Origin: Candidatus Omnitrophota bacterium
GTDB taxonomy: Bacteria > Omnitrophota > Gorgyraeia > 2-01-FULL-45-10
Direction: 5' to 3'
DNA: 64,000 nucleotides
Assembly: GCA_016929115.1 (NCBI GenBank)
Contig: JAFGJL010000010.1
Span: 331-64,330 of the forward strand
The position numbers and the translations under genes were made by a program. Of this stretch, positions 3,743 to 49,994 are shown in pieces (the first letter of the stretch is position 1; every line of letters begins with the position of its first letter). A model generated the notes under the pieces. The model saw nothing but the letters and a program-made list of their open reading frames with translations. It searched no databases and was not told the origin of the DNA.

Positions 3743-3761
3743 TATCTTTCCTTATTTTGAG

Positions 3762-3799: not shown

Positions 3800-3805
3800 T
3801 ACCCG

Positions 3806-9542: not shown

Positions 9543-9544
9543 AT

Positions 9545-30977: not shown

Positions 30978-31971
30978 CCGCCTGCTTATATAGACCCAGT
31001 CCGGACAAGACCGTCTTCACGCGGTATTTCAGCCGGATAAATCCCAGATGAGAACGCATCTTTAAATAATGCCCCTTGAGCCCGCCTCTCATTACAGGCG
31101 CCCCTTTCTTGAATATGCCGAACATATGCACCTTTTGTGCCGGGCCCTTCATTATGAGCCGCAGGCCGGCCTTTGAACAAAAATACTCCAATGTCCAAGG
31201 CGTGAAATAATAAGTGTGCGCGCCCTGCAGTTGCGAAATGCCGAAATTCATGATATTGGGGACGCCTATATATATGACGGACCCGTCGTGCATATGCTTT
31301 GTTATCTTTTTCAGCAAGCCGACGGGGTCCGGCAGGTGCTCCAGAACATGGTTTATGATGACTACGTCATATACGCCCCTGATATCGTTCGCATCGCCCT
31401 GAGCCATGTCTACGCCGTGCTTGCGCCCCAGTTCCACAAGGCTCGGGCTATACTCTATTCCGCGCGCTATCGCCCCCGCCTTTATGAAAGGCAGGAGATT
31501 CCATCCTCCGCCGGCGCCGAGCTCGATCACCGTTACCCCCGGCGTTATTTTCCTTGCCTTATCAACCGCTTCAAAGATATGGATCACGGAGCTGTCTTCG
31601 TATTTGCGTTTCTCGAATGCCTCGAGATAGTCATAACCTTCGTAACATCTCCTGTAAAGGTCCGATGAATAGAAATCGCGGGTTTGGGCTTCGGTCATCC
31701 TCGGATTGGACCGGATGAGGCCGCAATCGGTACACATGACCGTCTGCTGGAGTATGGCGTACCTGTCGATCGACGCTATCAGTACAAAATCCCGGCAACC
31801 GCACAGGCAAGGCGCTTCTTCAAACGCCACCCTGTTGTTTGTAATATCTTCGTTAAACTTCCCGATAAGCCGCAACTGGTCATCCGTCGTTGGCCCGACC
31901 GGTTTAGCCGCGGACGTGAACGGTTCGAACGGGAATAATATAGCGCCTGTTTTCATTTTAATCCCACTCAA
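30955..31971 (-). CDS. SAM-dependent methyltransferase with N-terminal Cys4 zinc-binding domain (paralog)
   Basis: CLCGC...CTDCG then IELGAGGG and VIINHVLEHL. Confidence 0.7.
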   Translation of the reverse strand: MSGIKMKTGAILFPFEPFTSAAKPVGPTTDDQLRLIGKFNEDITNNRVAFEEAPCLCGCRDFVLIASIDRYAILQQTVMCTDCGLIRSNPRMTEAQTRDFYSSDLYRRCYEGYDYLEAFEKRKYEDSSVIHIFEAVDKARKITPGVTVIELGAGGGWNLLPFIKAGAIARGIEYSPSLVELGRKHGVDMAQGDANDIRGVYDVVIINHVLEHLPDPVGLLKKITKHMHDGSVIYIGVPNIMNFGISQLQGAHTYYFTPWTLEYFCSKAGLRLIMKGPAQKVHMFGIFKKGAPVMRGGLKGHYLKMRSHLGFIRLKYRVKTVLSGLGLYKQADGYGQNI

Positions 31972-32839
31972 AATCTTCTTCGCGAAAATATCTCAGCTTA
32001 TATTTCACCTTCTCCTCTTCGGAGAATAAGACCTTCTCTCCTGTCCCGAGAAGGTCTTTTACGGCCCTTGCATCCCTCACTACGAGTTCCAATCCTCTTT
32101 TTTCCAAAGAAGCTGATTGGTCTGACCCGTACATGCTCCTGTCAAGAGTTATATGCCTTTCCAGGGCCACGGCGCCCAACGCAGCCGCAACCGTAGTCGG
32201 GCCTACGCCGTTCTCGTGGCCGCTGTAACCCACCGGGCAGTCATATCTCTTCCTGAAGACATCGATCATCTTTACGTTGCACCATTCGTCCGGGCACGGA
32301 TAGATCGAGACGCAGTGCATAAGGGTGAACGGGCAGTCATGCTTTCTGAAAAGGGCGACCACCCTGTCCACCTCATCCAACTTGCTCATGCCCGTCGAGA
32401 TAAAGGTGTGTTTGCCTTCCCTGGCTATCATCTCAACCAGGCCCTTGTGGGTAAGCATAGCCGACGCTATTTTGTTGAACGGCAGGTCGTACTGCCTCAG
32501 GAACTCCTGGCTCTTTTCATCCCATGCGGAAGCGAACCAGTGGATACCGATCTCTTTGCAATGCCTGTCAATGACATCGTATCCTGGCTTGCCCAGCTCA
32601 AGGGCCTCCTTCTGGGCCCTTTGCGTAGTCCCCCAGGGGCTCTGTCTCGGGGAATCGAGCACCTCTTTAGGGTAGACTATTTCTATAGTCCTCTTCTGGA
32701 ACTTTACAGCATCAGCCCCGCATTCCTTCGCCATATCAATCAACTTCTTTGCGATACCGACATCACCGTTGTGATTGATACCTACCTCGGCTATTATGAA
32801 CGGCAAGCTCTCCTCATTCTTATAAGGATCTATGCGCAT
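31958..32839 (-). CDS. NeuB-family (N-acetylneuraminate/pseudaminate/legionaminate synthase-type) PEP-condensing synthase, lacking C-terminal SAF domain
   Basis: IIAEVGINHNGD...KFQKR...ISTGMS...GYSGHE...ERHITLD. At 293 aa it is only the TIM-barrel domain. Confidence 0.85.
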   Translation of the reverse strand: MRIDPYKNEESLPFIIAEVGINHNGDVGIAKKLIDMAKECGADAVKFQKRTIEIVYPKEVLDSPRQSPWGTTQRAQKEALELGKPGYDVIDRHCKEIGIHWFASAWDEKSQEFLRQYDLPFNKIASAMLTHKGLVEMIAREGKHTFISTGMSKLDEVDRVVALFRKHDCPFTLMHCVSIYPCPDEWCNVKMIDVFRKRYDCPVGYSGHENGVGPTTVAAALGAVALERHITLDRSMYGSDQSASLEKRGLELVVRDARAVKDLLGTGEKVLFSEEEKVKYKLRYFREEDFEWD

Positions 32840-34757
32840 ACGATACCTCCTTTTTGCTCTCCGCCAATCCGTTCTCTTCCCTGTACTTCTTCACTGAAAT
32901 ATCCAGCGAATGCTTTGCATCGTTCGTTCTTGCCAGCTCGCACATAAAGGTTTGAATAAATCCGCCTATCCTTTCAGGCGCCAGGAGATCATCGAAATAA
33001 TTGAACTTCTGTCTCCATTCGGTAAAATCGCCTATCGTCCTGTCCCCTCCAGCCGCTTTAACGATCGCCGCCTTAAGGTCATCGAGTGAAAGATATACGA
33101 TCTTCTGCCCTGCGTCTGTCTGGAATGTGCGGTGGCGTATCCCGCCGCAGTCCCAGTGTATCGCGCGGCAACCATGGACAGCGGAAATGATGCCGGCGGA
33201 ATTAAGCCCGAAACATACCGAAAGGTCGGCTTGCCCGGATGCCGCAAGCGGATTATTTTGACGGTCCAGCATGACAAACCGCTTCTCTTTCGCAAGAGCG
33301 TCCATTCTCGAAACGATCTTTTCCCCTTCCGGCAACGACCGCAGGCGCGCCCTGTCACTATTCTTGCTCTTGACTATAGCGCCCCACCGCGGGTTATCTT
33401 CGATGAGGCCCAGTATCTCCAGATAGAACCTTGCCAGCGTAGCGGTCGAATACTGGATATTGTACCCTGCGGAGTTGTCGAATATCGCTATGACGAAATC
33501 CAGCCCGTCGCTAAAAGCCGGCTTCGGATCGAGGCCTCCCTCAGGCCGCATCATCCATAATCCGGAAGGCAGTATATTCCGGGGGGCATTGCCTATCTTT
33601 TCCATATATTCCCGGATCTCCTCCCCCCAAGTGAAATAGACATGGTGCGGAAAGATGTGGGTGGGAAGCGACAGGAAGTAGTAGTTAGACCAGTTATACC
33701 CTAACATGATGCCGCCGGCCGCCTCAACGGCCTTTGCCTGGACTTCCTGCCTCCAGAAAGCTTCCTGATGCTGGATCAGCACCTTCACCTGGAACCGCCT
33801 GAAGATCTTCTCATACAACAATAGATACAATTCATAATCAAAATAGAACAGCCGGAGCCACCGAGGCGATTTTTTAGTGAAGCGGCGGCGCCTTGGAAAC
33901 AGCCTGTTTAACTCGCTAAGCCTTATACCGCTCAGAGATATCATCGGGAAGAAATGAAGGTCGATCCATTTACATCCTCTCTTCCCGGCCATCTCGGCAA
34001 ACTTCAGCCGCAAGCCATCGTCGTTCCTGTCGAGATAATACACTACGTCGAATGCCTCTGCCTTGACGTGGCCGCGCCAGAAAAGAAAATCGACCATGCC
34101 CACATTGGCATATTCCACCCAGACAGCAGGCCTTGGCCGATCTATGTTCCCCCGCGCCTTTGCGGGGATAAACCTCGCCGCCAGAATAGCTAAAAAACAA
34201 AGAGCCGGTTTCGTAAAGAAACCCGCTGTTTCCATCACTCCGCATTCTTTTACGTCGAAATCCTTTTTCTCGTCGAACAGGAATATAACGGAGTTAAGAG
34301 GGTGCCTTTGTACATAGAGCACATGCCTGATATCTTTTGCGGTATTTTCCTGGCATTTTACCTTCGCCTCGACCATTGTCATGAACATAAAACGGTGGAG
34401 CAGGAAGCGGGCAAGGTAGGACTTAACCATCTTCCTGAACGAAGCGGGCTCTTCAGGTAGATATTGCATACAAAATTTTTCCAGGCATGTATCCGCCCGC
34501 ATCTGAGCCCGTTGGCTTAACGCAAATCCCTCGCCCTCCTTAAGATTCATCGATAGTCCGGCCTTATGAAAATTACGACATAGCCCGATCTTCCCGGCAA
34601 ACGGCATAAGGCGGGCTGCCGCACAGGATATCCTGTGCTCATCATACAGTATTTCGGCTCCGGAAAAGAAGCTTACGAACGACAAAGACAGCAGCTGTGC
34701 CAAACCCATCTTCTCAACCCATATTTTTTTTACACATCTTCTGCTTTCGCTATTCAT
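32820..34757 (-). CDS. Large hypothetical protein (645 aa), possible novel glycosyltransferase
   Basis: No signature motifs recognised. The C-terminal third has a GT-B-like pattern (VIAIFDNSAGYN...CFGLNSAGIISAVHG). The true start is probably downstream of the first ATG. Confidence 0.35.
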   Translation of the reverse strand: MNSESRRCVKKIWVEKMGLAQLLSLSFVSFFSGAEILYDEHRISCAAARLMPFAGKIGLCRNFHKAGLSMNLKEGEGFALSQRAQMRADTCLEKFCMQYLPEEPASFRKMVKSYLARFLLHRFMFMTMVEAKVKCQENTAKDIRHVLYVQRHPLNSVIFLFDEKKDFDVKECGVMETAGFFTKPALCFLAILAARFIPAKARGNIDRPRPAVWVEYANVGMVDFLFWRGHVKAEAFDVVYYLDRNDDGLRLKFAEMAGKRGCKWIDLHFFPMISLSGIRLSELNRLFPRRRRFTKKSPRWLRLFYFDYELYLLLYEKIFRRFQVKVLIQHQEAFWRQEVQAKAVEAAGGIMLGYNWSNYYFLSLPTHIFPHHVYFTWGEEIREYMEKIGNAPRNILPSGLWMMRPEGGLDPKPAFSDGLDFVIAIFDNSAGYNIQYSTATLARFYLEILGLIEDNPRWGAIVKSKNSDRARLRSLPEGEKIVSRMDALAKEKRFVMLDRQNNPLAASGQADLSVCFGLNSAGIISAVHGCRAIHWDCGGIRHRTFQTDAGQKIVYLSLDDLKAAIVKAAGGDRTIGDFTEWRQKFNYFDDLLAPERIGGFIQTFMCELARTNDAKHSLDISVKKYREENGLAESKKEVSYAHRSL

Positions 34758-34768
34758 ATTGCCCCGCG

Positions 34769-36163
34769 TTAAGCGTGCCGGAAACCTCGAAAAGCGGCAT
34801 CCTTTTCCAGATAAAGCGCTTTTGACTGCCGTATCGACTCGGACAGCTTTTTGCCGAAATAGTTCTCAAGGAGCCTTACGTTAGCCTCTAAAAGGCACCT
34901 GTGGAATTCATCGTCTTCCATATCCGTGAAGTTCACGCTCAAAAGGTCGGAATTGACATGCTTATGCTCATAAAAATCCTCGCAGTCCTTAAGCAACCCT
35001 TTTGTGATAGCGTGATAATACAAGGGAGACCCGGGATAAGGCGTAACAGGCCGTATGGTCCTGATCTGGGACCCGTCGTCATACTTCAAAAGGAACTCCA
35101 CGCCTTTTTCCAGAGTCTCTTTGTCCTCGCCGATGTTCCCGAATATGATATTGAGGCCCGGGCTTATGCCGACCTCAAGCGTGTTCTCGATCCCCTTTAT
35201 CACCTGCTCGGTCGTCAGGGCCTTGTTCATGTTCTTGAGTATGCGGTCATCCATGGCCTCTATACCGTAGTTGACAAATACGCACCCTGCCTTCTTCATC
35301 AGCTCAAGCACCTTCTTCGTGGCAAAGTTGAGCCTGCCGTTGCAATACCAGTTTATGCCGAGCCCCGCACGAAGAAAATCCTCGCACAGCTCCGTCGTCC
35401 TCGCCTCCGAGCACATGAAAAGATCGTCGCAGAAAGATATGTAGGTGACGTTATACCTGTCCTTGAGCGTCTTTATCTCGTCTATTATGCTCTTGGCTGT
35501 CCTTGGGCGGAACCCCTTGTCCATCCTGTAGCAGAAATTGCACTTATAAGGGCAGCCCCGGCCCGTTATTATAGGAAGACCTTTCTGGTTGTGTTTGATA
35601 TTGGGAAAACGGAACAGGGAGTAATATTCCATGTTAAAGAGATCCCATGCCGGATACGGTATCGAATCGAGGTCCTTTATCAGCGGCCGCGATGGCGTCT
35701 GGATGAACTTTCCGCTCTCTTTGTCTATATAGGCTATGCCCTTAACATCTTTCCACGGAGAATCATTTTCGATGGCCTTGCATAACTCCACGATAGTCTT
35801 TTCGCCCTCGCCTGTCACGACAGCGTCCGCTTCCGTCTTCTTCAGGAAATACTGCGGCTCAGGCGACGGGCCGTGCCCGCCGATGACATAGACCGGCCTG
35901 TTCTTTGACTTATTTACGGCCTCGGATATCTTGAGCAATTTCCTGTATTGGTAATATCCGCCCGAAACGCCCATGCCCACCAGGTCAAACCGGTGTTCAT
36001 CAAGATAAGCGGTGATATGCCCCTCCGGAAGATGGCCCGCATCCTGCTGATAGACGGTCACATCGTGCCCCGCCTCCCTCAGCGCGGCCGCGACGTATCC
36101 CAATCCCAGAGGGAACCAGTGCAGGAACGAATCGTTGTCATAGGCTATCAAGAGTATCTTCAT
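34769..36163 (-). CDS. Cobalamin-binding (class B) radical SAM enzyme
   Basis: The B12-binding N-terminus is KILLIAY...PLGLGYVAAAL. The CX3CX2C motif is GRGCPYKCNFC. Confidence 0.8.
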   Translation of the reverse strand: MKILLIAYDNDSFLHWFPLGLGYVAAALREAGHDVTVYQQDAGHLPEGHITAYLDEHRFDLVGMGVSGGYYQYRKLLKISEAVNKSKNRPVYVIGGHGPSPEPQYFLKKTEADAVVTGEGEKTIVELCKAIENDSPWKDVKGIAYIDKESGKFIQTPSRPLIKDLDSIPYPAWDLFNMEYYSLFRFPNIKHNQKGLPIITGRGCPYKCNFCYRMDKGFRPRTAKSIIDEIKTLKDRYNVTYISFCDDLFMCSEARTTELCEDFLRAGLGINWYCNGRLNFATKKVLELMKKAGCVFVNYGIEAMDDRILKNMNKALTTEQVIKGIENTLEVGISPGLNIIFGNIGEDKETLEKGVEFLLKYDDGSQIRTIRPVTPYPGSPLYYHAITKGLLKDCEDFYEHKHVNSDLLSVNFTDMEDDEFHRCLLEANVRLLENYFGKKLSESIRQSKALYLEKDAAFRGFRHA

Positions 36164-37746
36164 GCTGTTTCCAGTGCCGGCTCTTCATTAAAACGCTTTT
36201 TATAGACCCTGTATTCCAGGTCGCGCAGGCCTCTTGCCGCCTCGCTATCGGCCGCGGTAAGCAACCGCTTCACTTCGTCGCGCATCGCTGGCTCGGTCTC
36301 CTGAAAAAGTATAAAATTGTCCATGAGCCTCTTGCCCTCTTCCTTTGTCTTCGGGTCTACTTTGAGGACGGTGTCCTCGAACGTGATGTAATTCTCATTC
36401 AGATAGTCCATGTCGCGGACGGATCCTTCGTCCTCGATCCTGTTGAGCGCGTTCAAGTCGATCATGCCTTCTTTCATGCAATACTCTCTCAGCTCCGTTC
36501 CGGCGTAAGGGTAAAATATCCTTGCGGAAGCATGGTCGATGCCCCATTTGCCGCTTAAGCGGACATCCTGCCACATGTCTTCCAGCGTTTCATGGGGAAG
36601 GAAGAACATGAAATTGGCGACTTTCCGCAAGCCGTACTCAGTGATTATTTCGAAACATCTTTCGTACGCCTCATTGGATATGGGCTTGTTGAGGACCTTT
36701 TTTCTCAGCCGCTCATTCGACGTTTCCACCCCCACGCTCACTGACCGGCAACCCATCTCCGCCAGCATCCTGGCATTGTCGCGGTTTATCGTTTGCGCGG
36801 TCGTTTCGATGGTGAACGGCAGCGCTATGCTTTTTTTGTAAATGCTTGCGAATTTTGACAGATAATCCTTCGGCATCGAAAGGAATGTCTCGTCCCAGAA
36901 GCGCAGGAATTCCAGGTCATAGCGCTCCTTCAGGAAAAGAAGCTCGTCTGTGAGATAAGAAAGGCTCTTGAACCGCGGGCGTCTGCTTTCCCCGCCATAT
37001 ATGCGCCCGAAGAGGTCGTTTATGCAAAAATTGCATACATACGGGCATCCCCTGCCGATGAAAACGCTTCCCCGCCTGTAAAGTTTCCCTTCAAAGGGAT
37101 AGTAGAAATTGGCATCGTTGTACATGGACCAATCCAACATGGGAACGTCGTCGCTGAACTGCATCAGCGGCCTCAGGGGATTCTTTATGACCTTACCGTC
37201 CTTCTTTATCCACAGGTTCTTGATGGAGGTATCCGTCTTTCCGCTGTCTATAGCATCGAGGAGGTCGACAAGCGCCAGCTCCCCCTCGCCCACGCAGACC
37301 ATCGACACCTCGTCATGTTTTATGACTTGCTCCGGCCTGACCGTGGCGTGAACGCCGCCCACTATGATGGGGATATCCGGCACCATTGCGCGGACCTTCC
37401 TTATAAGAAAAAGCGCAAAGGGCCAATCGTCGGAAAACGACGAAAAGCCGATGACATCGATCTTGCGGTTCACGATAGCGCCTCTGAGATCGCCCAAAAG
37501 GCTCATGATGGACTTTTTCCGCGGCATGACCTCTTTATTCTTTATCGCCCTGAATTCAAGGTCTATGCGGGGCTTGTCCTTATACGACCTGTACGATGCC
37601 GCTGCCTTATCGCTCGTGTAATCCGCGGTGTCAAAAAATATGAACTTGTGCCCTGCTTTTTTGGCAAAAGCCGACATGCTCGAGATGCCCGGATACTGGA
37701 CGCCCGAGACCAGCCTGTTGCAATGTATCATCAAAACCGTTGCCAT
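36160..37746 (-). CDS. Cobalamin-binding (class B) radical SAM enzyme
   Basis: The B12-binding N-terminus is present. The CX3CX2C motif is GRGCPYVCNFC. There is a verified ATGA junction with the downstream rSAM gene. Length is 528 aa. Confidence 0.8.
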   Translation of the reverse strand: MATVLMIHCNRLVSGVQYPGISSMSAFAKKAGHKFIFFDTADYTSDKAAASYRSYKDKPRIDLEFRAIKNKEVMPRKKSIMSLLGDLRGAIVNRKIDVIGFSSFSDDWPFALFLIRKVRAMVPDIPIIVGGVHATVRPEQVIKHDEVSMVCVGEGELALVDLLDAIDSGKTDTSIKNLWIKKDGKVIKNPLRPLMQFSDDVPMLDWSMYNDANFYYPFEGKLYRRGSVFIGRGCPYVCNFCINDLFGRIYGGESRRPRFKSLSYLTDELLFLKERYDLEFLRFWDETFLSMPKDYLSKFASIYKKSIALPFTIETTAQTINRDNARMLAEMGCRSVSVGVETSNERLRKKVLNKPISNEAYERCFEIITEYGLRKVANFMFFLPHETLEDMWQDVRLSGKWGIDHASARIFYPYAGTELREYCMKEGMIDLNALNRIEDEGSVRDMDYLNENYITFEDTVLKVDPKTKEEGKRLMDNFILFQETEPAMRDEVKRLLTAADSEAARGLRDLEYRVYKKRFNEEPALETA

Positions 37747-37766
37747 GCGCTATCCTGCTTATCGTT

Positions 37767-38426
37767 TCAGGCCACTTCCACAAATGATATCGCGTTTGAA
37801 TAAGGAAGTTTATTTATCTTTATATTCTTACCGTTGAAGAAATCATCTATCGCTTTATTGGCGCCCGCGAACGCGCCGTAATCATCCAGCACCACGATGC
37901 CCCCTTTGGAGACGAGCGGATACAGCTCTTTAAGGCAAACAGCCGTCGCTTCATGCAAGTCCACATCGATATGCAAAAGGGATATCTTGAGATGGGGATT
38001 TTTAGCTTTGTACTCCGGGACGGTCTTCAATATGTCCCCTTCAACGAGATCTATGTTCTGGTATAAGCCGAGCTTTTGAAGTACGGAGACGAACTGGTCC
38101 TTGCTGATGCTCTGGCTGCCTGCCTCTTTTATGAATTGCGCCCTGCGCTCCACATCCTTTTCATACTTCGCCGCCGGAAATTCCCCGAACGTATCGAACG
38201 CCACTATCTTCTTTGAGTGGACGTTCTCGAAAAGCGCCCTGAATTTGATGAAACGCGAAAGCGAGACGCCTTTAAAGACGCCGCACTCCACTATGTCCCC
38301 CGCTATGCCGGATACCCTCCTGAAAAGGTCGAGGTGTGTCGCGAACTTACTTATCCTGTTGATGGGGGCCGTCAGGTAGAAATTATTCTCGTAATCGAAC
38401 TGTTTTGCGAAATCAAGCTCTATCAT
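37767..38426 (-). CDS. TylF/MycF-family (macrocin-type) SAM-dependent sugar O-methyltransferase
   Basis: GDIVECGVFKGVS...LLHIDVDLHEAT...GGIVVLDDYG, typical of the PF05711 family. Confidence 0.75.
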   Translation of the reverse strand: MIELDFAKQFDYENNFYLTAPINRISKFATHLDLFRRVSGIAGDIVECGVFKGVSLSRFIKFRALFENVHSKKIVAFDTFGEFPAAKYEKDVERRAQFIKEAGSQSISKDQFVSVLQKLGLYQNIDLVEGDILKTVPEYKAKNPHLKISLLHIDVDLHEATAVCLKELYPLVSKGGIVVLDDYGAFAGANKAIDDFFNGKNIKINKLPYSNAISFVEVA

Positions 38427-38449
38427 ATGCCTCTCCTTAGCGCCTGCGG

Positions 38450-39307: not shown

Positions 39308-39312
39308 CTCTT

Positions 39313-42663: not shown

Positions 42664-42670
42664 CTCCCCT

Positions 42671-43222
42671 TTATACCAGCTTGTCGGCCAACAATAACGC
42701 GGTCGAGGCGAGCGACTTAAGTTCCTCTATTTTCTTAAGCCTTTCCTCGTAGGTCTTTGCCAGCTTCTTCTCTTCATCGGTCCAATTCTCATCCGGCACC
42801 TTGATGATGTTCTTGAAGGAGTCTATCATGTCTGAGGTCTCTCCCATCCTCCTCTGGATAGCCTGCCTCACCTTTCTCAATATGACGCCTTTCACATCGA
42901 GGTTCGCCTCATAGTAGTCCTTCCGGGACCCCTTTACCCAAACGCTTCTTACGGCGTTCCAGTTCTCAAGCTCCCGGATATTGATGCTGACATTGCCCTT
43001 GCTTACCTTGAGCCTTTCGACTATCTCGTCCAGGGAAAGAGGCTTGTCGCTCAGATACAGCACGGCGTAGAGCTGGGCTATGAAACGGTTCAACCCGAAG
43101 CTGTCGCACAATTTCCCGATGCTTTCAATGAACTTGTCTTGGGCGGTCTCCAACTTGCTATTCATCTGCATCCCCCTTTGATTATCTCCTGTTGCGCTTT
43201 CGATCCTCATCTGTTTTGACAT
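42671..43222 (-). CDS. GbsR/MarR-like winged-helix transcriptional regulator
   Basis: LNRFIAQLYAVLYLSDKPLSLDEIVERLKVSKGNVSINIRELE...KDYYEA resembles COG1510/GbsR. The start may be an internal ATG (43210 or 43174). Confidence 0.55.
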   Translation of the reverse strand: MSKQMRIESATGDNQRGMQMNSKLETAQDKFIESIGKLCDSFGLNRFIAQLYAVLYLSDKPLSLDEIVERLKVSKGNVSINIRELENWNAVRSVWVKGSRKDYYEANLDVKGVILRKVRQAIQRRMGETSDMIDSFKNIIKVPDENWTDEEKKLAKTYEERLKKIEELKSLASTALLLADKLV

Positions 43223-43673
43223 AATATAAAAGCTCCCTTAAAACGCCCTCGCCGCCGGTTGTATTCAGGACGATCTTTGCTACAGCCTTTGCTTCCTTGC
43301 AGGCGTTAGCGGGACATACGGGATGCCCCACGATCCGCATCGCTTCAAGATCGTTAAGGTCGTTACCCACATAGACCACGTCCTTCAGGGGTATATTCGT
43401 GTCGCGGCAATATATTTTCAAGGCCTCGCACTTATCCGGCACATCCTGCAATACGGGTATATCGAGCTTTTTCGCTCTTTCAGCGACCACCTTGTTTCTT
43501 TCTGTGGAGAGGATCATCTGGGGTATTCCGCGGCGCTTAAAGACGCCCACCGCCAGCCCGTCAGAACGGTTGACGGTGACGCTCTCCAGGCCGTCCTCCC
43601 TCAGGATGATCTTATTATCCGTCATCACTCCGTCAAAATCGTATACTATGAGTTTTATGTTCCTCACCAGCAT
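43182..43673 (-). CDS. KdsC-family HAD phosphatase (ulosonic acid-phosphate phosphatase)
   Basis: LIVYDFDGVMTDN (DxDGV) and VYVGNDLNDLEAM. A length of 163 aa is typical of KdsC and of KDN-9-P phosphatases. Confidence 0.8.
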   Translation of the reverse strand: MLVRNIKLIVYDFDGVMTDNKIILREDGLESVTVNRSDGLAVGVFKRRGIPQMILSTERNKVVAERAKKLDIPVLQDVPDKCEALKIYCRDTNIPLKDVVYVGNDLNDLEAMRIVGHPVCPANACKEAKAVAKIVLNTTGGEGVLRELLYYVKTDEDRKRNRR

Positions 43674-44524
43674 GTCCTCCCGCCGTCTATCACGACATTT
43701 GCCCCGGTCATATAGGAAGAAGCGTCGCTGACCAGGAAGACGACCGCGGCTTCGTATTCATCGCTCTTGGCCATGCGTCCCATAGGTATCAGATCCGTAA
43801 GCTTGCTGACGAACCCGGCCGGTTGGTTCTTATAAACTCCACCGGGAGATATGGAATTCACCCGTATGTTCTTACTTGCCCAGTAGGTAGCGCAATATTT
43901 GGTAAGCCCTATAAGGCCGTGCTTGACCACAGAATAAGTGACGGGCTTAGCGGGTTGCCCGGTTTCCGGCAGCCCTTTTTTGCGGTATATCCTCTGATCA
44001 GGCGCTATGACGCCCAGATCCGAAGAAACGTTCAGCATGACCCCGCCGCCGTGTCCGGCAAAATAGGATCCCACGACCTGGCTGCAGATAAACGCTCCGG
44101 TGAGTCCGACGGAAATATCTTTTTCCCATGACTCAAGTCCGAAGTTCTCCAGTCTGCTTCCGGCAAGGCTATCGCTTTTTTCCACCTTCGGGTTATGGGC
44201 CGCGTTATTTATGAGTATATTGGCCTTTTTGAACCTGCGGATAACCGCCGAAAGCGCGTCCTTGACGCATTTCTGATCCCTGATATCCACGGCAAAACCT
44301 TCGCATCTGACGCCGCAGGATCTATTGATATCCTGGGCGGCTTTCTTCACGGCCTTTTCGTCTATATCCCATAACACCGGTATCCCGCCCGCTTCGCCTA
44401 CCGCCTTGGCGTGCCTGCGCCCTAAAAAGCCAGCGCCGCCCGTGATGATAGCCACTTTACCCCCGAGCCTGAATCTATCAAGTGTTTTCATGGTGATCCT
44501 TTTATCTTTAGGCCATCTCTTCAA
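43664..44524 (-). CDS. Classical short-chain dehydrogenase/reductase (SDR)
   Basis: VAIITGGAGFLGRR, NNAA and YSVVK (YxxxK). The start may be the ATG at 44491. Confidence 0.75.
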   Translation of the reverse strand: MKRWPKDKRITMKTLDRFRLGGKVAIITGGAGFLGRRHAKAVGEAGGIPVLWDIDEKAVKKAAQDINRSCGVRCEGFAVDIRDQKCVKDALSAVIRRFKKANILINNAAHNPKVEKSDSLAGSRLENFGLESWEKDISVGLTGAFICSQVVGSYFAGHGGGVMLNVSSDLGVIAPDQRIYRKKGLPETGQPAKPVTYSVVKHGLIGLTKYCATYWASKNIRVNSISPGGVYKNQPAGFVSKLTDLIPMGRMAKSDEYEAAVVFLVSDASSYMTGANVVIDGGRTCW

Positions 44525-45875
44525 AACACTCTTCGTAAACTCTCAGCCCTTCCACAAGCGCGCTTTCTGGTATCGTCAAGGGCGGGCCGAGTTTTATTGT
44601 CCCGCGCCCGGTGCATATCGAGAAGACGCCTTTTTCCATGGCCCGCTCAACGATGCGGTTCGTGAAGTCTATATCGAGCTCGTCAGAATTCTTCTTTGTG
44701 ACGAAGACGCCGAAGAGCATGCCCTTACCCAGGATACGGCCGATCCGGCCGGGAAACCGCTTTTTCAATCTGGCGAGCTCCCTGGTGATTACAGCTTCTT
44801 TCCGCTTCGATACGGCCACTAGATCGTCCTTTTCGAACGCCTCCAGATTGCCCAGTCCGGCCGCGCATACCAGCGGATGCCCGCCGTGCGTGCTGGTATA
44901 GGTCGGGTCAAGCTCGATCAGGCCGGCGCCTCCCAATACGGCCGAAAGCGGCAGGCTCGACGAGATCGCCTTACCGCAGATAACCATATCGGGCTCCACG
45001 CCGTAGTGCTCGTAGGCGAAAAATTTGCCCGTCCTGCCGAAACCCGCCTGTATCTCGTCAAATACCAGAAGCGACTTGTTCTCTTTGGACCACTTTCTCA
45101 TCGTCTTTATATAATCTACCGGATAGAAGACCGCTCCCCATCCCTGGAACGATTCGACAAAGAACGCGGCGATCTCGTTCAGTTTAACGCCGCCCTTTTC
45201 AAGGTCTTTCAAATGCTTAAAGAAGAGAGCTTCCCCCCTCAACCCGGATCTTTCCAATGCCCATGGATAAGGGAACGGCATATGAACCATGTTCGGGTCG
45301 AGGTAGCCTATCCATTTCTTTCCGTCATGCTGGCCGCCTGCCATCTGGGAGCCCATCGTCTTGCCGTGGAAATTCCCCTCTCCTCCGACGATAACTGCCT
45401 TCCGTGGCGTGAACTGCATGCCGTAGTACCGGGCCAGCTTTATCGCCCTCTCGCTGGCCTCTGTCCCGGAACTGAATAATGACGCCTTCTTCAGGTAAGA
45501 AGGCGTCATTGAAATGAGCTTTTCCAGGAATGCCGCCCTTATGGGGGTAGGATAAGAATAGCTATGGAGAAGCGGCTTGTCCAACTGCTCCTTGACGCGC
45601 TTTATTATACGGCTATTGCCGTGGCCGGCATTGGTAACAAAAATGGACGACGTGAAGTCTATCCATTTGTTCCCCCAGGAGTCAAAGACCTGGTATCCTT
45701 CGGCATGGTCCCATATCACAGGCAACTGGTCCATCACGTTGGAGGACTCGTACTTTTTGATCTTTTTCAGCAGTTTCAGCGACTGTGGCACCGGGATCTT
45801 AGTTTTGATGCAACGGTACTTTGTAAGCACTTTCGGAACGGCTCGCGGCGTCAGGTTGAACTTAAAACCACTCAT
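44508..45875 (-). CDS. Class III PLP-dependent aminotransferase
   Basis: DEIQAGFGRTGKFFA and ICGKAISSSLPLSAV (Schiff-base lysine region). Length is 455 aa. Confidence 0.8.
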   Translation of the reverse strand: MSGFKFNLTPRAVPKVLTKYRCIKTKIPVPQSLKLLKKIKKYESSNVMDQLPVIWDHAEGYQVFDSWGNKWIDFTSSIFVTNAGHGNSRIIKRVKEQLDKPLLHSYSYPTPIRAAFLEKLISMTPSYLKKASLFSSGTEASERAIKLARYYGMQFTPRKAVIVGGEGNFHGKTMGSQMAGGQHDGKKWIGYLDPNMVHMPFPYPWALERSGLRGEALFFKHLKDLEKGGVKLNEIAAFFVESFQGWGAVFYPVDYIKTMRKWSKENKSLLVFDEIQAGFGRTGKFFAYEHYGVEPDMVICGKAISSSLPLSAVLGGAGLIELDPTYTSTHGGHPLVCAAGLGNLEAFEKDDLVAVSKRKEAVITRELARLKKRFPGRIGRILGKGMLFGVFVTKKNSDELDIDFTNRIVERAMEKGVFSICTGRGTIKLGPPLTIPESALVEGLRVYEECFEEMA

Positions 45876-45920
45876 CTTTACACCTCTTTCTTTGATCTTA
45901 TCGTTGCCGAATATGCTGAA

Positions 45921-47009
45921 CTAACGACTCCTGGACATTTCCGGGACGTTCATCTCTCTTGTCGTAGGGACATAGCGCTTAGCTTGCTCAATATCCTTCC
46001 CGGATGACGTCAGGGTATACTTGACGGATAAGTATAGGGCGGAATCCATGACCTTTTCGCCCACACGTATCTCCTTTAAAATCAGGGCCCTGCCTCCGGC
46101 GATAACCCTGACATACCGGTCGTCCAATATAGTAACGATCTTGCCGTTACAAAAAGGATGGAATTCCTGCGAGACCGATGTGTCGATATAGCTGTCCAGG
46201 ATATGCACCTTTTGGCCGTTGTAATAGGTATAGGCTCCCGGATAAGGGACGCTGAACGCCCTTATGAACCGTTCGACCGAGTTGATATCCCAATCCCAGT
46301 TTATGATGCCGTTCTGCTCCGTATAAAGGCGCGGATAATAAAAGCTTTTGTTGTGGTCCTGGGGCCTGGCGGGAACGGGATCCTCCTTTAAAAGAATGTC
46401 GAGAAACCCGCTCAGGAGCTTCTTGCAATTGTCCACTTCCGCGATCAGGTAATCGACCGGCTTGGGGTGATCCTTTTTTATGGCGACGCGGCCCTGGAGG
46501 ATCACGTCTCCGCTGTCTATGCCCTCGTCGAGATAATGGACGGTGTCCCCTACCGTGTTGATGCCGTTCAGGATGCGCCAGGTATTCAACGCCCCTCCCC
46601 TTTCATCCGGCAGATACGAGTCATGGATATTGAAGATCTGCCCCTTGAAATAGTCGATTATCATCTTCTTTATGATATTGCGGCAGCTCGTCGAAAAGCC
46701 GATATTGCATTTATGCCCGGACAGGATCTCGATAGCTTCGTCGCAATTGACGTTCTCCATCTTGTAGATCCTGACCAACCCACGGCTGGCCAGGGACTCC
46801 ATGTCCCCGCAAAGCCCGTAAGGGGTCAGGAGCTTTTTATCCCTCATGTATTCTTCGTCCGGAGAGACGATCGCGACAGGCGGCGGGAATCCGCGCGCGT
46901 GCAATTCCTTGATCAGATGGTCTGTATAGACGATCCTGCCGAAAATGGCGAATTGAAAGTCCTTGGGCTGTTTCACGTTTGCGTCCTTTGGGTTAAAGGC
47001 TCCACACAC
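45921..47009 (-). CDS. Formyltransferase-family protein (sugar N-formyl/acyl transferase, Fmt N+C domains)
   Basis: NIHDSYLPDERGGA matches the HxSLLPxxRG formyltransferase motif. There is a C-terminal Fmt_C-like domain. Confidence 0.7.
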   Translation of the reverse strand: MCGAFNPKDANVKQPKDFQFAIFGRIVYTDHLIKELHARGFPPPVAIVSPDEEYMRDKKLLTPYGLCGDMESLASRGLVRIYKMENVNCDEAIEILSGHKCNIGFSTSCRNIIKKMIIDYFKGQIFNIHDSYLPDERGGALNTWRILNGINTVGDTVHYLDEGIDSGDVILQGRVAIKKDHPKPVDYLIAEVDNCKKLLSGFLDILLKEDPVPARPQDHNKSFYYPRLYTEQNGIINWDWDINSVERFIRAFSVPYPGAYTYYNGQKVHILDSYIDTSVSQEFHPFCNGKIVTILDDRYVRVIAGGRALILKEIRVGEKVMDSALYLSVKYTLTSSGKDIEQAKRYVPTTREMNVPEMSRSR

Positions 47010-47796
47010 TGTTGGAGCCGACCGGTTCTTTCAAACGGGCCTCTCTTTTCAGGTTCTTGTAATTTGAGCAAAGATGATCATAGACGGGATGTTTCTGGTT
47101 CGCCAGAAAGAAGTTCAGCTTCCTGAAATCGTCCGGTCCGTCGACTTCGCCCGTGTCGGGAGTCATGAAGGCCAGCATCCTCGGTCCGTAACACGATCTA
47201 TAGCGCTTCAGGGTGTGCGTTTTGATGATATCGACATACCCGTTACCGAAATATGCGGGCGGGAAAGCCTGTCTGGGAAGCGTAAAATATTCCGGTCTGG
47301 GATCGAAGGGACACAGGCCCTGCAGATAACCGTCATGCATGCCGAACATCTTCCCTGGCGGCTCTTCGATCTCATGCACGGAAACGAGGCTGGTCGACTC
47401 CGGCCTGCTTTTTATGTACGAGACGGATTCGCTGAGCAGCGCCGGGTCACGAAGCGGGGTCGTGGGGCGTATCTGGACCCAGTATTCAGGCGCATAGTTC
47501 TCGTTCTGCTCAAACCAGCCCAGGGCATGCTCGATGACTTCCTTATCCGTTGAATTGTCCCTGGCGAATTCGGCCGGCCTCATAAAAGGCACTTCGGCAC
47601 CAAAAAGTTTCGCGATCTCCGCGATCTCTTCGCTATCCGTTGAAATGATGGTCCTTTCTATATTCTTGGCCAGCTTGCATGCAACCACTGAATACGCTAT
47701 TAAAGGAAAGCCACCGAGATCGCGTATATTCTTTTTGGGCACTCCCTTTGAGCCGCCGCGGGCTTGTATCAACGCGATCACATCGCTTTTTTTCAT
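46993..47796 (-). CDS. Acylneuraminate cytidylyltransferase family (third CMP-sugar synthetase)
   Basis: ALIQARGGSKGVPKKNIRDLGGFPLIAYSV. Length is 267 aa. Confidence 0.8.
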   Translation of the reverse strand: MKKSDVIALIQARGGSKGVPKKNIRDLGGFPLIAYSVVACKLAKNIERTIISTDSEEIAEIAKLFGAEVPFMRPAEFARDNSTDKEVIEHALGWFEQNENYAPEYWVQIRPTTPLRDPALLSESVSYIKSRPESTSLVSVHEIEEPPGKMFGMHDGYLQGLCPFDPRPEYFTLPRQAFPPAYFGNGYVDIIKTHTLKRYRSCYGPRMLAFMTPDTGEVDGPDDFRKLNFFLANQKHPVYDHLCSNYKNLKREARLKEPVGSNSVWSL

Positions 47797-47808
47797 TGCT
47801 CTCTTCTC

Positions 47809-49152
47809 CTAATTGGAAACAGCATTACGTTCGCGCAGGCCTTTAAAGACAGGCGAACCCGGTTTGCATCTAAGGAATTTTGCGATATCGTCGCCGCTCT
47901 CCACGGCGTTCTTTATGACGACGCAGGCCTTGTCGAACGAGTCGATGAAACAATCAAGGTCTTCGCGCGAATGTGAGTAAGAGAGCATGAGGACCCCCGC
48001 AAAGCAGAGTATGCCCTCCTTGAACATCTCCTGTTGGTAAAGCGTTGCGAGGTTAAGGTTGTGGATGCCGTTTGAATCGTGCGTATTGACCATGAGCCGC
48101 ACCGGATATCCCGCCAGGGAAACGTTTTTACCGACCCCGTGCCTGTCAATGATAGCCCTGAGCCCCTTCTCCAGATATTCTCCTTTCTCCCATAATTTTG
48201 CGATCACATCATTTTCCTTATAAAAATCTATCACCGCTGAAGCCGCGGCCAATGTCAATGCTTCAGGCGCGTAGGTGGAGGAGAGAAAGGCCTTGTCAAA
48301 ATTTTTCATGTATTTCCTCTTCCCCGCGATAACGCCCAGAGGCATGCCGTTCGTTATGCCTTTGCCGAATGTCGCGAGGTCGGGCACCACATTAAAGAAC
48401 TCCTGCGCCCCTCCCATCCTGAAGCGGAAACCCGATATCATCTCGTCGAATATGAGGAGCGCGCCGTTCTCGTGAGCCAGCGCCTTGACCTTGTTCAGGA
48501 AATCGTCCTTTGGTTTTTCCGCTATCACCGGCTCCATGATCACGGCGGCCACACGGCCGTGGTACTGCTCGAACATCTTACTTAAACCGCTTATGTCGTT
48601 ATACCGGAAAGACTTGGTGAGCTCGCGCACGCATTTGGGGACACCGGCGTTGCGGTCCGTAGAGCCGATATACCAGTCCTGGAAGCCGTGGTAGCCGTAA
48701 CATAATATCATCTCTTTTCCTGTAACGGCCCTTGCCAGCCTCACGGCCGCCGCGCACACATCGCTGCCGTTCTTGGAAAATTTGAGCATCTCGGCACACG
48801 GAATGCATTCAACAAGCTTTTCGGCCACCTCCACCTCCAGCGGATTGAGCAGGCTGAAGAGTATGCCTTTATCCATCTGTTTTTTTATGGCCTCATTGAT
48901 GGGCTCGTAATTATGCCCCAAGGTGGTCGGCCCGCACCCCATTACCATGTCGATAAACTCGTTGCCGTCAACGTCCCAGACATGGGAACCCTTCTGCCGG
49001 ATGACGTATTTCGGCGCGGCACCGTCCGGAAAGACGCCCGGGGACCTGCTGAATGTCTGAGTGCCAGTAGCTATCACCTTGAGCGCTCTCCGCCATAATT
49101 CGTCGCTCTTCTTGATGCCGTACCTCAAGCCAAGTTTTTTGTTTGCTGACAT
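47809..49152 (-). CDS. Class III aminotransferase, glutamate-1-semialdehyde aminomutase-like
   Basis: FDEMISGFRFRMGGAQEFFNVVPDLATFGKGITNGMPLGVIAG (HemL-like signature). Length is 447 aa. Confidence 0.8.
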   Translation of the reverse strand: MSANKKLGLRYGIKKSDELWRRALKVIATGTQTFSRSPGVFPDGAAPKYVIRQKGSHVWDVDGNEFIDMVMGCGPTTLGHNYEPINEAIKKQMDKGILFSLLNPLEVEVAEKLVECIPCAEMLKFSKNGSDVCAAAVRLARAVTGKEMILCYGYHGFQDWYIGSTDRNAGVPKCVRELTKSFRYNDISGLSKMFEQYHGRVAAVIMEPVIAEKPKDDFLNKVKALAHENGALLIFDEMISGFRFRMGGAQEFFNVVPDLATFGKGITNGMPLGVIAGKRKYMKNFDKAFLSSTYAPEALTLAAASAVIDFYKENDVIAKLWEKGEYLEKGLRAIIDRHGVGKNVSLAGYPVRLMVNTHDSNGIHNLNLATLYQQEMFKEGILCFAGVLMLSYSHSREDLDCFIDSFDKACVVIKNAVESGDDIAKFLRCKPGSPVFKGLRERNAVSN

Positions 49153-49994
49153 ATCGCCTCCTTATCTTCGAGCCATTTTTCCACCATACAACGGTACCTG
49201 CACAACGCGCCGGCATGATCACCGTCCGAAGCCCTTGCGGTCTGCAGGATATAGTTACCCTCATAACCGCCGGCACGAAGAGCGCTGAGAGCACCGGCTA
49301 TATCGGCATCCCCTTCTCCCAGGGGCACGGTCGTGCCCTTGAACTTCCTGTCCTTTATATGGACGTTCTTTATCCTGCCGCCATAAGCCGGGAACTCCTC
49401 TTTAAAATCATAGCCCAGCGAAGCGCTGTTACCGATATCGTAATTGATACCGAAATGTTCCGGATCAAATTTAGCGATGAACTTCTTAAGGCGGGACGGC
49501 CTAAAATCCGATTCGAATACTATGACCGCCCCGCTATCGCGAAGGACAGGAGCGACCGAAGCCATGCCTCTCAATAATTCCTCCTCCTGATCCTTATTTT
49601 CCAGGCTGCCTTTATCCACCAGCGGGACCACTATCTTCTTTATGCCTAATTCGGCGCATGAGGAGACTATTTTCTTAAAATCATCCAGCAGACTTGTGTT
49701 GCGGGACCCTTGCGCTTTATAAAAAGGCTCCTGGATATAGGTGTCGCAGGTTATGGACCTTATAGCCATATCGTTCTTCTTCATTAATTCCTTGATCTCA
49801 AGACGGCCCGCTCTGCTCATGAGGGGGTTCTCGTTCAATCTTTCCTGCTCAATAACCCATTCCATCAGCCTGAACCCATGCTTCTTTGCAATGGCGAACT
49901 CATCGCGCCATGTCTGCCAAGGGAAGGCCTGTATCCTGCCTTCCTCTATAACCGAAAACCGGCCCTGCATAAAACCTATTCGCGCTGGATCCAT
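49125..49994 (-). CDS. Xylose-isomerase-like TIM-barrel sugar(-phosphate) isomerase/epimerase
   Basis: AP_endonuc_2-type pattern (HGFRLMEW...IVFESDF...HFGINYDIGN...HIKD) with the acidic/His metal ligands. Confidence 0.65.
   Translation of the reverse strand: MDPARIGFMQGRFSVIEEGRIQAFPWQTWRDEFAIAKKHGFRLMEWVIEQERLNENPLMSRAGRLEIKELMKKNDMAIRSITCDTYIQEPFYKAQGSRNTSLLDDFKKIVSSCAELGIKKIVVPLVDKGSLENKDQEEELLRGMASVAPVLRDSGAVIVFESDFRPSRLKKFIAKFDPEHFGINYDIGNSASLGYDFKEEFPAYGGRIKNVHIKDRKFKGTTVPLGEGDADIAGALSALRAGGYEGNYILQTARASDGDHAGALCRYRCMVEKWLEDKEAICQQTKNLA

Follow-up and report, generated by a model that had tools for sequence, protein, structure and literature searches.

What kind of sugar would be built by a bacterium that carries two NeuB-family synthases without SAF domains? 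The question is raised by a 64,000-nucleotide stretch of a Candidatus Omnitrophota genome (contig JAFGJL010000010.1 of assembly GCA_016929115.1), here called the window, in which a first-pass annotation had singled out positions 31958-49994 as a non-canonical nonulosonic acid module. Domains were assigned by Pfam and NCBIfam profile searches, with the Pfam scan covering all large open reading frames (ORFs) of the window, and all the genes on which that annotation was built are present, on the minus strand. Its observation is confirmed, whereas its interpretation is partly supported. As to the locus as a whole, we lean, without strong conviction, towards reading the region as the sugar-precursor core of a surface-glycan/lipopolysaccharide (LPS) operon of approximately 41 kb in this Omnitrophota bacterium.

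Two synthase subfamilies without a SAF domain

Both synthases are encoded on the minus strand and consist of a NeuB domain with no SAF domain, as had been proposed. NeuB_a (31958-32839, 293 aa) matches the Pfam NeuB family with 221.7 bits and NeuB_b (38450-39307) with 221.5 bits. The lengths of 285-293 aa first given for the pair hold for NeuB_a, whereas for NeuB_b the database start at 39298 shortens the 285-aa frame to 282 aa. Both proteins stop 10-20 residues past the barrel, and a search for SAF in the ORF that follows each of them (a methyltransferase overlapping the NeuB_a stop and a TylF-family protein after NeuB_b) gave no match. At NCBI, an identical protein is named 'N-acetylneuraminate synthase family protein'. 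Among the matches listed, more than 100 homologs of NeuB_a share 64-79% identity with it and contain a NeuB domain only, in 250-310 aa (nearly all 270-300 aa and most 278-296 aa); their hosts are Thermodesulfovibrio, Schekmanbacteria, Aminicenantes and Omnitrophota, with further relatives in Prochlorococcus (~57% identity) and Ca. Thioglobus (~54%). The NeuB_b family, again with a NeuB domain only and 63-95% identity, occurs in Omnitrophota, Nitrospirae, Elusimicrobia, several lineages of the candidate phyla radiation (CPR) and one Firmicute. An exhaustive search at E <=1e-30 gathered 1,787 clusters (50% identity), and most of the top 150 measure 270-300 aa.

The two paralogs are 40-41% identical to each other, 22-30% identical to NmNeuB, Campylobacter jejuni PseI and Bacillus subtilis SpsE, and 31-33% identical to the SAF-less Leptospira protein of PDB entry 6NCS. 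Against the equivalog model of NeuB (TIGR03569, cut-off 399.65) they score 230 bits (NeuB_a) and 223 bits (NeuB_b), and against that of PseI (TIGR03586, cut-off 340.25) 182 and 155 bits, respectively. The residues involved in phosphoenolpyruvate (PEP) and metal binding (E25, K53, Q55, K129, S132, S154, Y186, S213, H215, H236 and D247 in NmNeuB numbering) are kept in both paralogs and in their families. On the sugar side, the position of Glu134, a Glu in NmNeuB, PseI and SpsE, is occupied by Met in all the NeuB_a sequences sampled and by Lys in all those of NeuB_b. This Lys, like the conserved R50, R65, R74, K77 and C-terminal K281 and R283, is a candidate for phosphate binding. The SAF domain supplies substrate-binding residues (PMC8208679), and the domain carrying one of them, Arg314, is absent from both window proteins. 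The AlphaFold model of NeuB_a (mean predicted local distance difference test 92.3) consists of a TIM barrel and, at its C-terminus, two helices; structurally it comes closest to 6NCS (template modelling score 0.81-0.83), and the barrels of PseI and NeuB superpose on it with scores of 0.80-0.84. Truncated pseudogenes, which would have been a trivial explanation for such short synthases, are ruled out by the more than 100 homologs of the same length per paralog, the intact catalytic residues and the confident model. Moreover, in a simple neighbour-joining tree with few references, NeuB_a and NeuB_b form sister clades separate from the SAF-bearing references, and 6NCS falls outside them. As judged from their sequences, NeuB_a and NeuB_b each represent a conserved SAF-less subfamily. 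SAF-less proteins make up 30% of 13,941 NeuB-domain sequences, mostly environmental and of untested function (PMC8208679).

Conserved cassettes around both synthases

NeuB_a belongs to a group of genes, all on the minus strand, that we call module A (the block 49994-43182 plus NeuB_a). It starts with a xylose-isomerase-like TIM barrel of the AP_endonuc_2 family (49125-49994; Pfam, 86.8 bits), a candidate UlaE-like ketose(-phosphate) 3-epimerase or isomerase whose best PDB match is the L-ribulose-5-phosphate 3-epimerase UlaE (5e-9). It is followed by a class-III aminotransferase (Aminotran_3) similar to glutamate-1-semialdehyde (GSA) aminomutases (47809-49152; PRK06209, 427 bits; GSA aminomutases of the PDB to 6e-57), whose family shows 62-89% identity and which is syntenic in the related loci L013 (64%), L012 (72%) and L069 (68%). 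The next gene encodes a cytidylyltransferase of the CTP_transf_3 family (CTP3_A, 46993-47796; Pfam, 79 bits) with the canonical motif ARGGSKGvPkKN, which scores 126 bits against the PseF model (cut-off 206) and, in the PDB, 75-99 bits against NeuA and other CMP-Neu5Ac synthetases and 32 bits against KdsB. CTP3_A is a candidate CMP-ulosonate synthetase of module A, and its NeuA-like rather than KdsB-like character leans mildly towards a nine-carbon substrate. A formyltransferase with both N and C domains (45921-47009; Pfam; similar to ArnA, Fmt and PRK06988) is a candidate sugar N-formyltransferase. The second class-III aminotransferase (44508-45875; Aminotran_3, Pfam, 264 bits) resembles gamma-aminobutyrate (GABA) and acetylornithine aminotransferases, of the omega-transaminase type; GABA transaminases are its best characterised transaminase matches in the PDB (~4e-57), the overall top match being a racemase (1e-58), and its GABA-type relatives are omega-transaminases that use terminal aldehydes of carboxylic acids. 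Its orthologs (45-68% identity) lie after CTP3_A-like genes in L002, L003, L009, L011, L012 and L013, and in all these loci except L012 the two genes were recorded as a dyad.

The two remaining genes of the block are a classical short-chain dehydrogenase/reductase (SDR) similar to PRK09186 and PtmA (43664-44524; Pfam/NCBIfam), which is a candidate sugar or ulosonate dehydrogenase that would supply the carbonyl for transamination, and a C0-type HAD protein with a DFDGV motif (43182-43673) from the family of KdsC and Kdn-9-P phosphatases. Several SDRs had been announced for the region, which does contain an SDR, but just this one. The phosphatase scores 105 bits against the Kdn-9-P phosphatase model NF058599 (cut-off 180) and 87 bits against the KdsC model TIGR01670 (cut-off 107), and matches in the PDB a Streptomyces HAD protein (3MMZ, 8e-36), the Kdn-9-P phosphatase BT1713 (3E81, 85 bits) and KdsC (82 bits). 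On these scores it is a member of the KdsC/Kdn-9-P phosphatase family and an equivalog of neither enzyme. Domain searches thus bear out the KdsC-family phosphatase, the two class-III aminotransferases, the formyltransferase and the TIM barrel of the first-pass annotation.

Related loci were obtained through a single-protein contig scan, which gave 4 loci, and an alignment-based metagenome scan with over 600 matches, 80 of them retained. In the 39 metagenome loci that reach 8 kb or more, the neighbours of NeuB_a, counted as lower bounds because of incomplete contigs, include an ortholog of the SDR in 20 (46-64% identity, mostly in the order AP_endonuc_2 - SDR_b - SDR), a second SDR (SDR_b) in 19, a SIS_2 isomerase and a CTP_transf_3 protein (CTP3) in 18 each, an AP_endonuc_2 protein in 17, a HAD phosphatase in 10, a GABA-type aminotransferase in 7 and a VOC protein in 5. 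The commonest core runs HAD - NeuB_a - SIS_2 - AP_endonuc_2 - SDR - SDR plus CTP3, and has beside it an optional set of CTP3, aminotransferase, VOC and methyltransferase genes; the window shows a rarer variant, with the GSA-like aminotransferase in the usual position of the second SDR. In a Ca. Thioglobus locus (L013), a GmhA-like SIS_2 protein, HAD, NeuB_a, AP_endonuc_2 and a GSA-like aminotransferase are followed by CTP3, an Antibiotic_NAT acyltransferase, a GABA-type aminotransferase and an SDR, with 34-68% identity to the window proteins. L012 carries the same set, but with a formyltransferase (55% identical to that of the window) where L013 has the acyltransferase, and with a NeuB-SAF-AP_endonuc_2 fusion (3709-5598). 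This synteny indicates that the block 49994-43182 and NeuB_a belong together as a single conserved module, whose N-acyl/formyl transferase can be exchanged.

Gene fusions point in the same direction as the gene order. CTP_transf_3-HAD-NeuB (P0382, 683 aa), HAD-NeuB (P0386), CTP_transf_3-NeuB (P0395 and P0494) and NeuB-CTP_transf_3 (P0401) proteins were found among the relatives of NeuB_a, AP_endonuc_2 domains are fused to NeuB in L012 and P0415, and CTP_transf_3-HAD fusions adjoin NeuB in L004, L005 and L010. The idea that the phosphatase implies a sugar-phosphate substrate is reinforced by the HAD gene next to NeuB in many loci and by the fusions of HAD with NeuB, with or without CTP_transf_3, all of which would fit a synthase that uses an omega-phosphorylated aldose. 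The SIS_2 proteins of the sister cassettes are GmhA-like (171-184 bits, under the cut-off), so that a heptose-phosphate (C10) route is among the possible ones. Class-IV aminotransferases (Aminotran_4) replace the class-III enzymes beside HAD - NeuB_a - CTP3 in L094 (16440-19534) and L004 (7568-8536), and the amination step thus seems to be filled by non-homologous aminotransferases in other genomes. A DegT protein of L004 was also considered as a KdnA ortholog, which is unsupported, its best PDB match being a glutamine:scyllo-inositol aminotransferase.

NeuB_b is part of module B (42663-32820), also on the minus strand. Its first gene is a fusion of an N-terminal CTP_transf_3 domain (47 bits) with a class-I S-adenosylmethionine (SAM)-dependent methyltransferase (41320-42663), followed by a 448-aa radical SAM/SPASM protein (39974-41320). 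Directly upstream of NeuB_b lies CTP3_C (39313-39987), a divergent CTP_transf_3 protein that reaches 28 bits in Pfam and, over the 205 residues from 11 to 215, 51 bits against the PseF model; its loop AKNNSSRCRDK (A-K-x-x-S-x-R-x-x-x-K) is of the KdsB type, with Lys in place of Arg. The three proteins of the CMP-transferase family announced for the region are thus found, the third of them being divergent. After NeuB_b come a TylF-family O-methyltransferase (37767-38426; Pfam, 83 bits), two B12-binding radical SAM proteins (36160-37746, class-B methylase-like, and 34769-36163) and a 645-aa PFTS-motif polysaccharide protein (32820-34757; TIGR04417, 32 bits, under the cut-off; precomputed Pfam match PF27878, PFTS_polysacc). 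These radical SAM and PFTS genes, as well as a MarR-like ORF, come on top of the genes initially listed for the region.

Module B is syntenic, with 42-77% identity, in a second Omnitrophota metagenome-assembled genome (L094), where a small ORF, the CTP3-methyltransferase, a 450-aa radical SAM protein, a 223-aa CTP3_C ortholog, NeuB_b, TylF, two B12-radical SAM proteins and a PFTS-like protein (42% identity) occupy equivalent positions, followed by HAD, a NeuB_a-like synthase, CTP3 and a class-IV aminotransferase. In the CPR loci L009 and L011, the order is CTP3 - class-III aminotransferase - VOC - methyltransferase - iron-containing alcohol dehydrogenase (Fe-ADH) - HAD - NeuB_b - radical SAM/SPASM - B12-radical SAM - LIC12162-family protein - flippase, and the triad of NeuB_b, radical SAM/SPASM and B12-radical SAM recurs in L010 and L095. 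Orthologs of the B12-binding radical SAM protein 34769-36163 flank NeuB_b in CPR and Elusimicrobia loci, and the NeuB_b neighbours in L009, L010 and L011 are 37-42% identical to it. The Fe-ADH of L009 and L011 is a close homolog of the Shewanella 3-deoxy-D-manno-octulosonate 8-oxidase KdnB (5K8C; E 7e-101, 341 bits), and it is flanked on one side by the HAD-NeuB pair and on the other by an aminotransferase that is 49-50% identical to 44508-45875 of the window. More than one product, as had been suggested, is plausible, given two sister subfamilies (40% identity) that each occur alone with their own cassette in other genomes.

A predicted pathway and its alternatives

The gene content of both modules suggests two related pathways to CMP-activated 3-deoxy-2-ulosonic acids that would start from sugar phosphates and not from the nucleotide-hexosamine route, a reading that we hold to be slightly better than even. 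Module A would begin with the UlaE-like AP_endonuc_2 protein, which would adjust the stereochemistry of a phosphorylated ketose or aldose drawn from central metabolism, helped in other genomes by a GmhA-like isomerase and a second SDR. NeuB_a would join PEP to the sugar phosphate to give an omega-phosphorylated ulosonate, and the KdsC-type HAD would remove the phosphate. The SDR would then turn hydroxyls into carbonyls, which would be aminated after the condensation by the two class-III aminotransferases, one of them probably acting at the terminal carbon, as in Kdo8N (8-amino-3,8-dideoxy-D-manno-octulosonic acid). Finally, the formyltransferase would N-formylate one of the amines and CTP3_A would form the CMP-sugar. 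In module B, NeuB_b and its own divergent cytidylyltransferase(s) would produce a second ulosonate, to be O-methylated by TylF, probably C-methylated or otherwise radical-modified by the two B12-radical SAM enzymes and the SPASM enzyme, and passed on by the PFTS protein. The CPR cassettes would follow a comparable logic: a phosphorylated ulosonate, its dephosphorylation, the oxidation of a (terminal) hydroxyl, transamination, N-methylation or N-acylation, and activation with CTP. The SDR is the sole candidate oxidase in the window because KdnB is absent there, and the oxidation is one of the steps that we infer, as are the identity of the substrate, its chain length, the order of the steps, the positions of amination and the functions assigned to the radical SAM enzymes. 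The end products would probably be diamino, N-acylated, CMP-activated ulosonic acids of surface glycans.

Parts of this logic are known from other systems. In the Kdn pathway, PEP and a sugar phosphate give a ulosonate phosphate, then the free ulosonate and finally its CMP-sugar (PMC6200933). Its versions in Bacteroides thetaiotaomicron (the Kdn-9-P synthase BT1714, the phosphatase BT1713 and a CMP-Kdn synthetase) and Prymnesium parvum, and the animal Neu5Ac-9-P route, share with the window a NeuB-family synthase, a KdsC-type C0 HAD and a CTP_transf_3 protein. However, the window synthases have no SAF domain and belong to subfamilies of their own, the HAD stays at 105 bits under a cut-off of 180, and the window carries in addition genes for a formyltransferase, an SDR, an AP_endonuc_2 protein, radical SAM enzymes and two class-III aminotransferases, which indicates that its product is not plain Kdn. 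With the Kdo8N system of Shewanella oneidensis, in which KdnB oxidises and KdnA transaminates Kdo (3-deoxy-D-manno-octulosonate), the proposed pathway shares the amination of a finished ulosonic acid, and the KdnB homologs of L009 and L011 stand directly beside HAD and NeuB_b. KdnA is a DegT-fold aminotransferase, in contrast to the class-III (GABA aminotransferase-like) enzyme of the window, which in turn has no KdnB, would make its backbone with a NeuB homolog instead of KdsA, and carries a second aminotransferase and an N-formylation function. The Leptospira protein 6NCS (290 aa) is the best match in both sequence and fold, and also a NeuB that is only a TIM barrel, but at 31-33% identity and with Asp at the Glu134 position, where NeuB_a has Met and NeuB_b Lys. 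A phosphosugar substrate was proposed for a NeuB-phosphatase fusion of Leptospira interrogans (Ricaldi et al. 2012; PMC3438082), and no biochemical test of that fusion or of 6NCS was found in the searchable literature.

The canonical PseBCHGIF and LegBCHGIF pathways have in common with the window their NeuB-family and CTP_transf_3-family enzymes. The window lacks their NDP-hexose 4,6-dehydratase, DegT aminotransferase and SAF domain, as well as a NeuC-type hydrolysing epimerase, and has class-III aminotransferases and a phosphatase instead. In agreement with the earlier claim that NeuC, PseB, PseC and LegB homologs are missing from the 64 kb window, no Epimerase_2 (NeuC) or DegT_DnrJ_EryC1 match and no clear PseB or LegB gene was found there; its two extended SDRs, at 11854-12840 and 58311-59354, are of a generic kind, the first of them scoring 152 bits against the LegB model (cut-off 475), tied with UXS and RmlB. 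The class-III aminotransferases had been taken for stand-ins of PseC, a role that does not hold, as they appear to be integral, syntenic parts of a cassette that would condense first and aminate later. The nine carbons implied by the term nonulosonic are one possibility: the KdnB homolog and the GmhA-like isomerases allow C8, C9 and C10 products, and only the NeuA-like CTP3_A leans to C9. All three backbone lengths may thus be considered compatible with the evidence. Concerning precedents for the chemistry, mass spectrometry has revealed CMP-activated C10 ulosonic acids in Magnetospirillum, to which no genes have been assigned, and N-formylated or free-amine nonulosonic acids from a Leg-type cluster were reported for Ca. 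Kuenenia (bioRxiv 10.64898/2026.04.20.719630), so the predicted chemistry has precedents that lack the genetics. No description of the present cassette was found in the literature searched. With more than 600 metagenome matches, it is widespread rather than confined to this genome, and SAF-less NeuBs were already reported (PMC8208679). What is new is the two NeuB subfamilies that lack SAF and differ in their sugar-side residue, the class-III aminotransferases (two in the window), the exchangeable N-formyl/acyl transferase, the stereochemical toolkit of AP_endonuc_2, SDR and SIS_2 proteins, and the tightly linked radical SAM/B12 enzymes. The phosphosugar logic would be that of the Kdn pathway (PMC6200933) and of the idea put forward for the Leptospira fusion (PMC3438082), and the late oxidation and amination would be those of Kdo8N.

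The amination could also come first, if the SDR, the AP_endonuc_2 protein, the aminotransferases and the formyltransferase built an amino or N-formylamino sugar phosphate to which NeuB_a would then add PEP, in the way in which animals turn ManNAc-6-P into Neu5Ac-9-P. For the making of that sugar phosphate, PtmF and PtmA, which make GlcN-6-P in the legionaminic acid pathway of Campylobacter, offer a parallel, and the outcome would be a 5-amino or 5-formamido sugar resembling neuraminic acid. The PtmA/PRK09186-like SDR speaks for such an order, as do the GmhA-like SIS_2 (18 of the 39 loci) and AP_endonuc_2 (17 of the 39) genes within the core cassette, the ketose phosphate used by the best PDB match of AP_endonuc_2, and the fusion of this domain to NeuB, which suggests an action just before the synthase. 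It is nevertheless unlikely: L014, L020, L041, L055, L082 and L092 have AP_endonuc_2, SDRs and SIS_2 in core cassettes without any aminotransferase, and these proteins thus need no amination, whereas the dyad of aminotransferase and CTP3 travels with KdnB, an oxidase of the finished ulosonate. The SAF domain of NmNeuB is said, after work by Gunawan et al. in 2005, to contact the N-acyl group. The absence here of SAF, which gives NmNeuB substrate-binding residues (PMC8208679), fits a substrate that is not N-acylated. With a comparably low probability, the SAF-less NeuBs could be non-orthologous replacements of KdsA that convert a pentose 5-phosphate into Kdo-8-P or one of its isomers, leading to Kdo8N-type amino-octulosonic acids of the LPS core or O-chain. 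This possibility draws on the close KdnB homolog of the sister cassettes, a HAD that scores about equally as KdsC and as Kdn-9-P phosphatase, an AP_endonuc_2 protein whose nearest relative works on pentulose 5-phosphates, the LPS-type locus with its GT9 heptosyltransferase and O-antigen ligase, and the KdsB-like loop of CTP3_C. No KdsA-family match was found in the window, and KdsB models stay at or below 35 bits (cut-offs 155-281). Against eight carbons stand CTP3_A, which is far nearer to NeuA/PseF than to KdsB (99 versus 32 bits), the target of KdnB, a terminal diol common to octulosonic and nonulosonic acids, and the presence of the cassettes in CPR bacteria as well, which are not known to make LPS.

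An ordinary Pse, Leg or Neu5Ac pathway whose early genes (PseB/C/H/G, LegB/C/H/G or NeuC) lie in another part of the genome, and to which the class-III aminotransferases are unrelated passengers, appears very improbable. The view is limited to 64 kb of a metagenome-assembled genome, and some of the related loci do have DegT genes and SAF-bearing NeuBs nearby, but the two synthases are distant from NeuB, PseI and SpsE (22-30%, and 31-33% for 6NCS) and far under the equivalog cut-offs, and the aminotransferases, HAD, SDR and AP_endonuc_2 proteins are syntenic with SAF-less NeuBs across phyla, and even fused to them. Least probable of all is that no glycan precursor is made, with the NeuB-like aldolases, radical SAM enzymes and methyltransferases serving a small-molecule natural product or a cofactor; a density of radical SAM/B12 and methyltransferase genes that is unusual for glycan loci would agree with it, but the operon in which these genes lie also encodes glycosyltransferases (GT2, GT4 and GT9), membrane proteins of the PMT_2 and YfhO types, an O-antigen ligase and an exporter of the HepA/MsbA type, there are three cytidylyltransferases, and the related loci contain flippases and Wzz/Wza genes.

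Condensation of a phosphosugar followed by late amination is, as a general mechanism, the account that we find probable, if only just. Several points weigh against it. Within the window, neither a KdnB-type Fe-ADH nor the SIS_2 isomerase and second SDR of the module A relatives were found, oxidation would depend on a single candidate SDR, and there is one HAD gene for two synthases. Every NCBIfam match of the region's proteins lies under its curated cut-off, and therefore no protein is an equivalog of a named enzyme; the substrates and products of NeuB_a and NeuB_b are predictions from sequence context. CTP3_C is so divergent that it might not be a ulosonate cytidylyltransferase, the aminotransferases could act on sugar phosphates before the condensation, and the tree, simple as it is, was built without LegI, human NANS and BT1714. 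Moreover, the DegT genes or second SAF-bearing NeuBs that lie close by in L013, L091, L023 and L027 make cross-talk with canonical pathways possible. A bolder extension of the phosphosugar pathway, which we regard as rather doubtful, is that the triad of NeuB_b, radical SAM/SPASM and B12-radical SAM enzymes, or, in relatives of module A, a heptose 7-phosphate fed to NeuB_a by a GmhA-like isomerase, would lead to C10, C-methylated or chain-extended diamino CMP-sugars, of the kind seen in Magnetospirillum, entirely through late tailoring of the free ulosonate. If true, bacteria would have, next to the Kdn-9-P route and the NDP-hexosamine routes, a third general way of making sialic-acid-like sugars.

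The surrounding operon and the meaning of the cassette

The region lies within a run of 34 co-directional minus-strand genes, from 63985 to 22836, with intergenic gaps of 90 nt at most. Downstream of NeuB_a, co-transcribed accessory genes on the same strand include a methyltransferase (30955-31971) that overlaps the NeuB_a stop, a 393-aa ORF without Pfam or NCBIfam matches (29796-30977), a B12-radical SAM protein (28297-29835), the HepA/MsbA-type ABC exporter (26507-28303), another methyltransferase (25425-26492) and a small radical SAM/SPASM protein (24435-25415), whose homologs adjoin SAF-less NeuBs in L002, L006, L009-L011 and L095. At the downstream end, the GT9 heptosyltransferase and the Wzy_C O-antigen ligase (8430-11161) suggest that the product ends on an LPS-like molecule. 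Six B12-binding radical SAM genes (799-2238, 7133-8464, 28297-29835, 34769-36163, 36160-37746 and 50848-52284) and two SPASM ones (24435-25415 and 39974-41320) were counted in the window, beyond the genes initially listed. This density is unusually high and suggests that the polysaccharide is extensively C-methylated or radical-tailored.

Within the biosynthetic operon, between both modules, a small MarR/CudC-like helix-turn-helix ORF (42671-43222, minus strand) scores 25.9 bits against MarR_2 and 79 bits against the CudC model. It shares 41 nt with the HAD gene, and a 164-aa ORF is found at the equivalent position of L094. The PFTS protein of module B is a low-confidence candidate for the ulosonate transferase. 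In L009 (13347-15332), L011 (13267-15234) and L012 (14333-16111), proteins of the new Pfam family LIC12162, with approximately 600-660 aa, follow the NeuB/radical SAM genes, and they are candidate ulosonate transferases as well; no BLAST similarity was found between the PFTS protein and this family, which holds the equivalent position in CPR loci, and a single family is not claimed. Four ORFs of the operon (29796-30977, 22836-24431, 61630-63363 and 63365-63985; 206-577 aa) have no Pfam match, and 22836-24431, which was run against NCBIfam together with 29796-30977, gave no match there either. Three GT2 paralogs stand in tandem on the minus strand (3806-4873, 4822-5868 and 5861-7033), with plus-strand shadow ORFs over them (4828-5619 and 5585-6841) that have no Pfam match. 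The segment 4800-7200 was checked for tandem repeats or a CRISPR array and has neither, the repeats there being the three GT2 paralogs.

Flagella, S-layers, capsules and LPS bear sialic-acid-like sugars, which influence how they are recognised by phages, grazers and immune systems. Nearly all predictions of these sugars from genomes search for the Pse, Leg and Neu5Ac gene sets. Here, SAF-less NeuBs, which account for about 30% of NeuB-domain proteins (PMC8208679), are tied to a modular cassette that recurs in Omnitrophota, CPR bacteria, SUP05, Prochlorococcus, Elusimicrobia and Thermodesulfovibrio. It combines a phosphatase, a cytidylyltransferase, an oxidase and an omega-transaminase, and may also include formyl/acyl transferases, methyltransferases and radical SAM enzymes. 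The cassette offers candidate genes for the amino, N-formyl and C10 ulosonic acids that are now appearing in mass spectrometry, and a concrete pathway hypothesis for a large part of the microbial 'dark' glycobiology.

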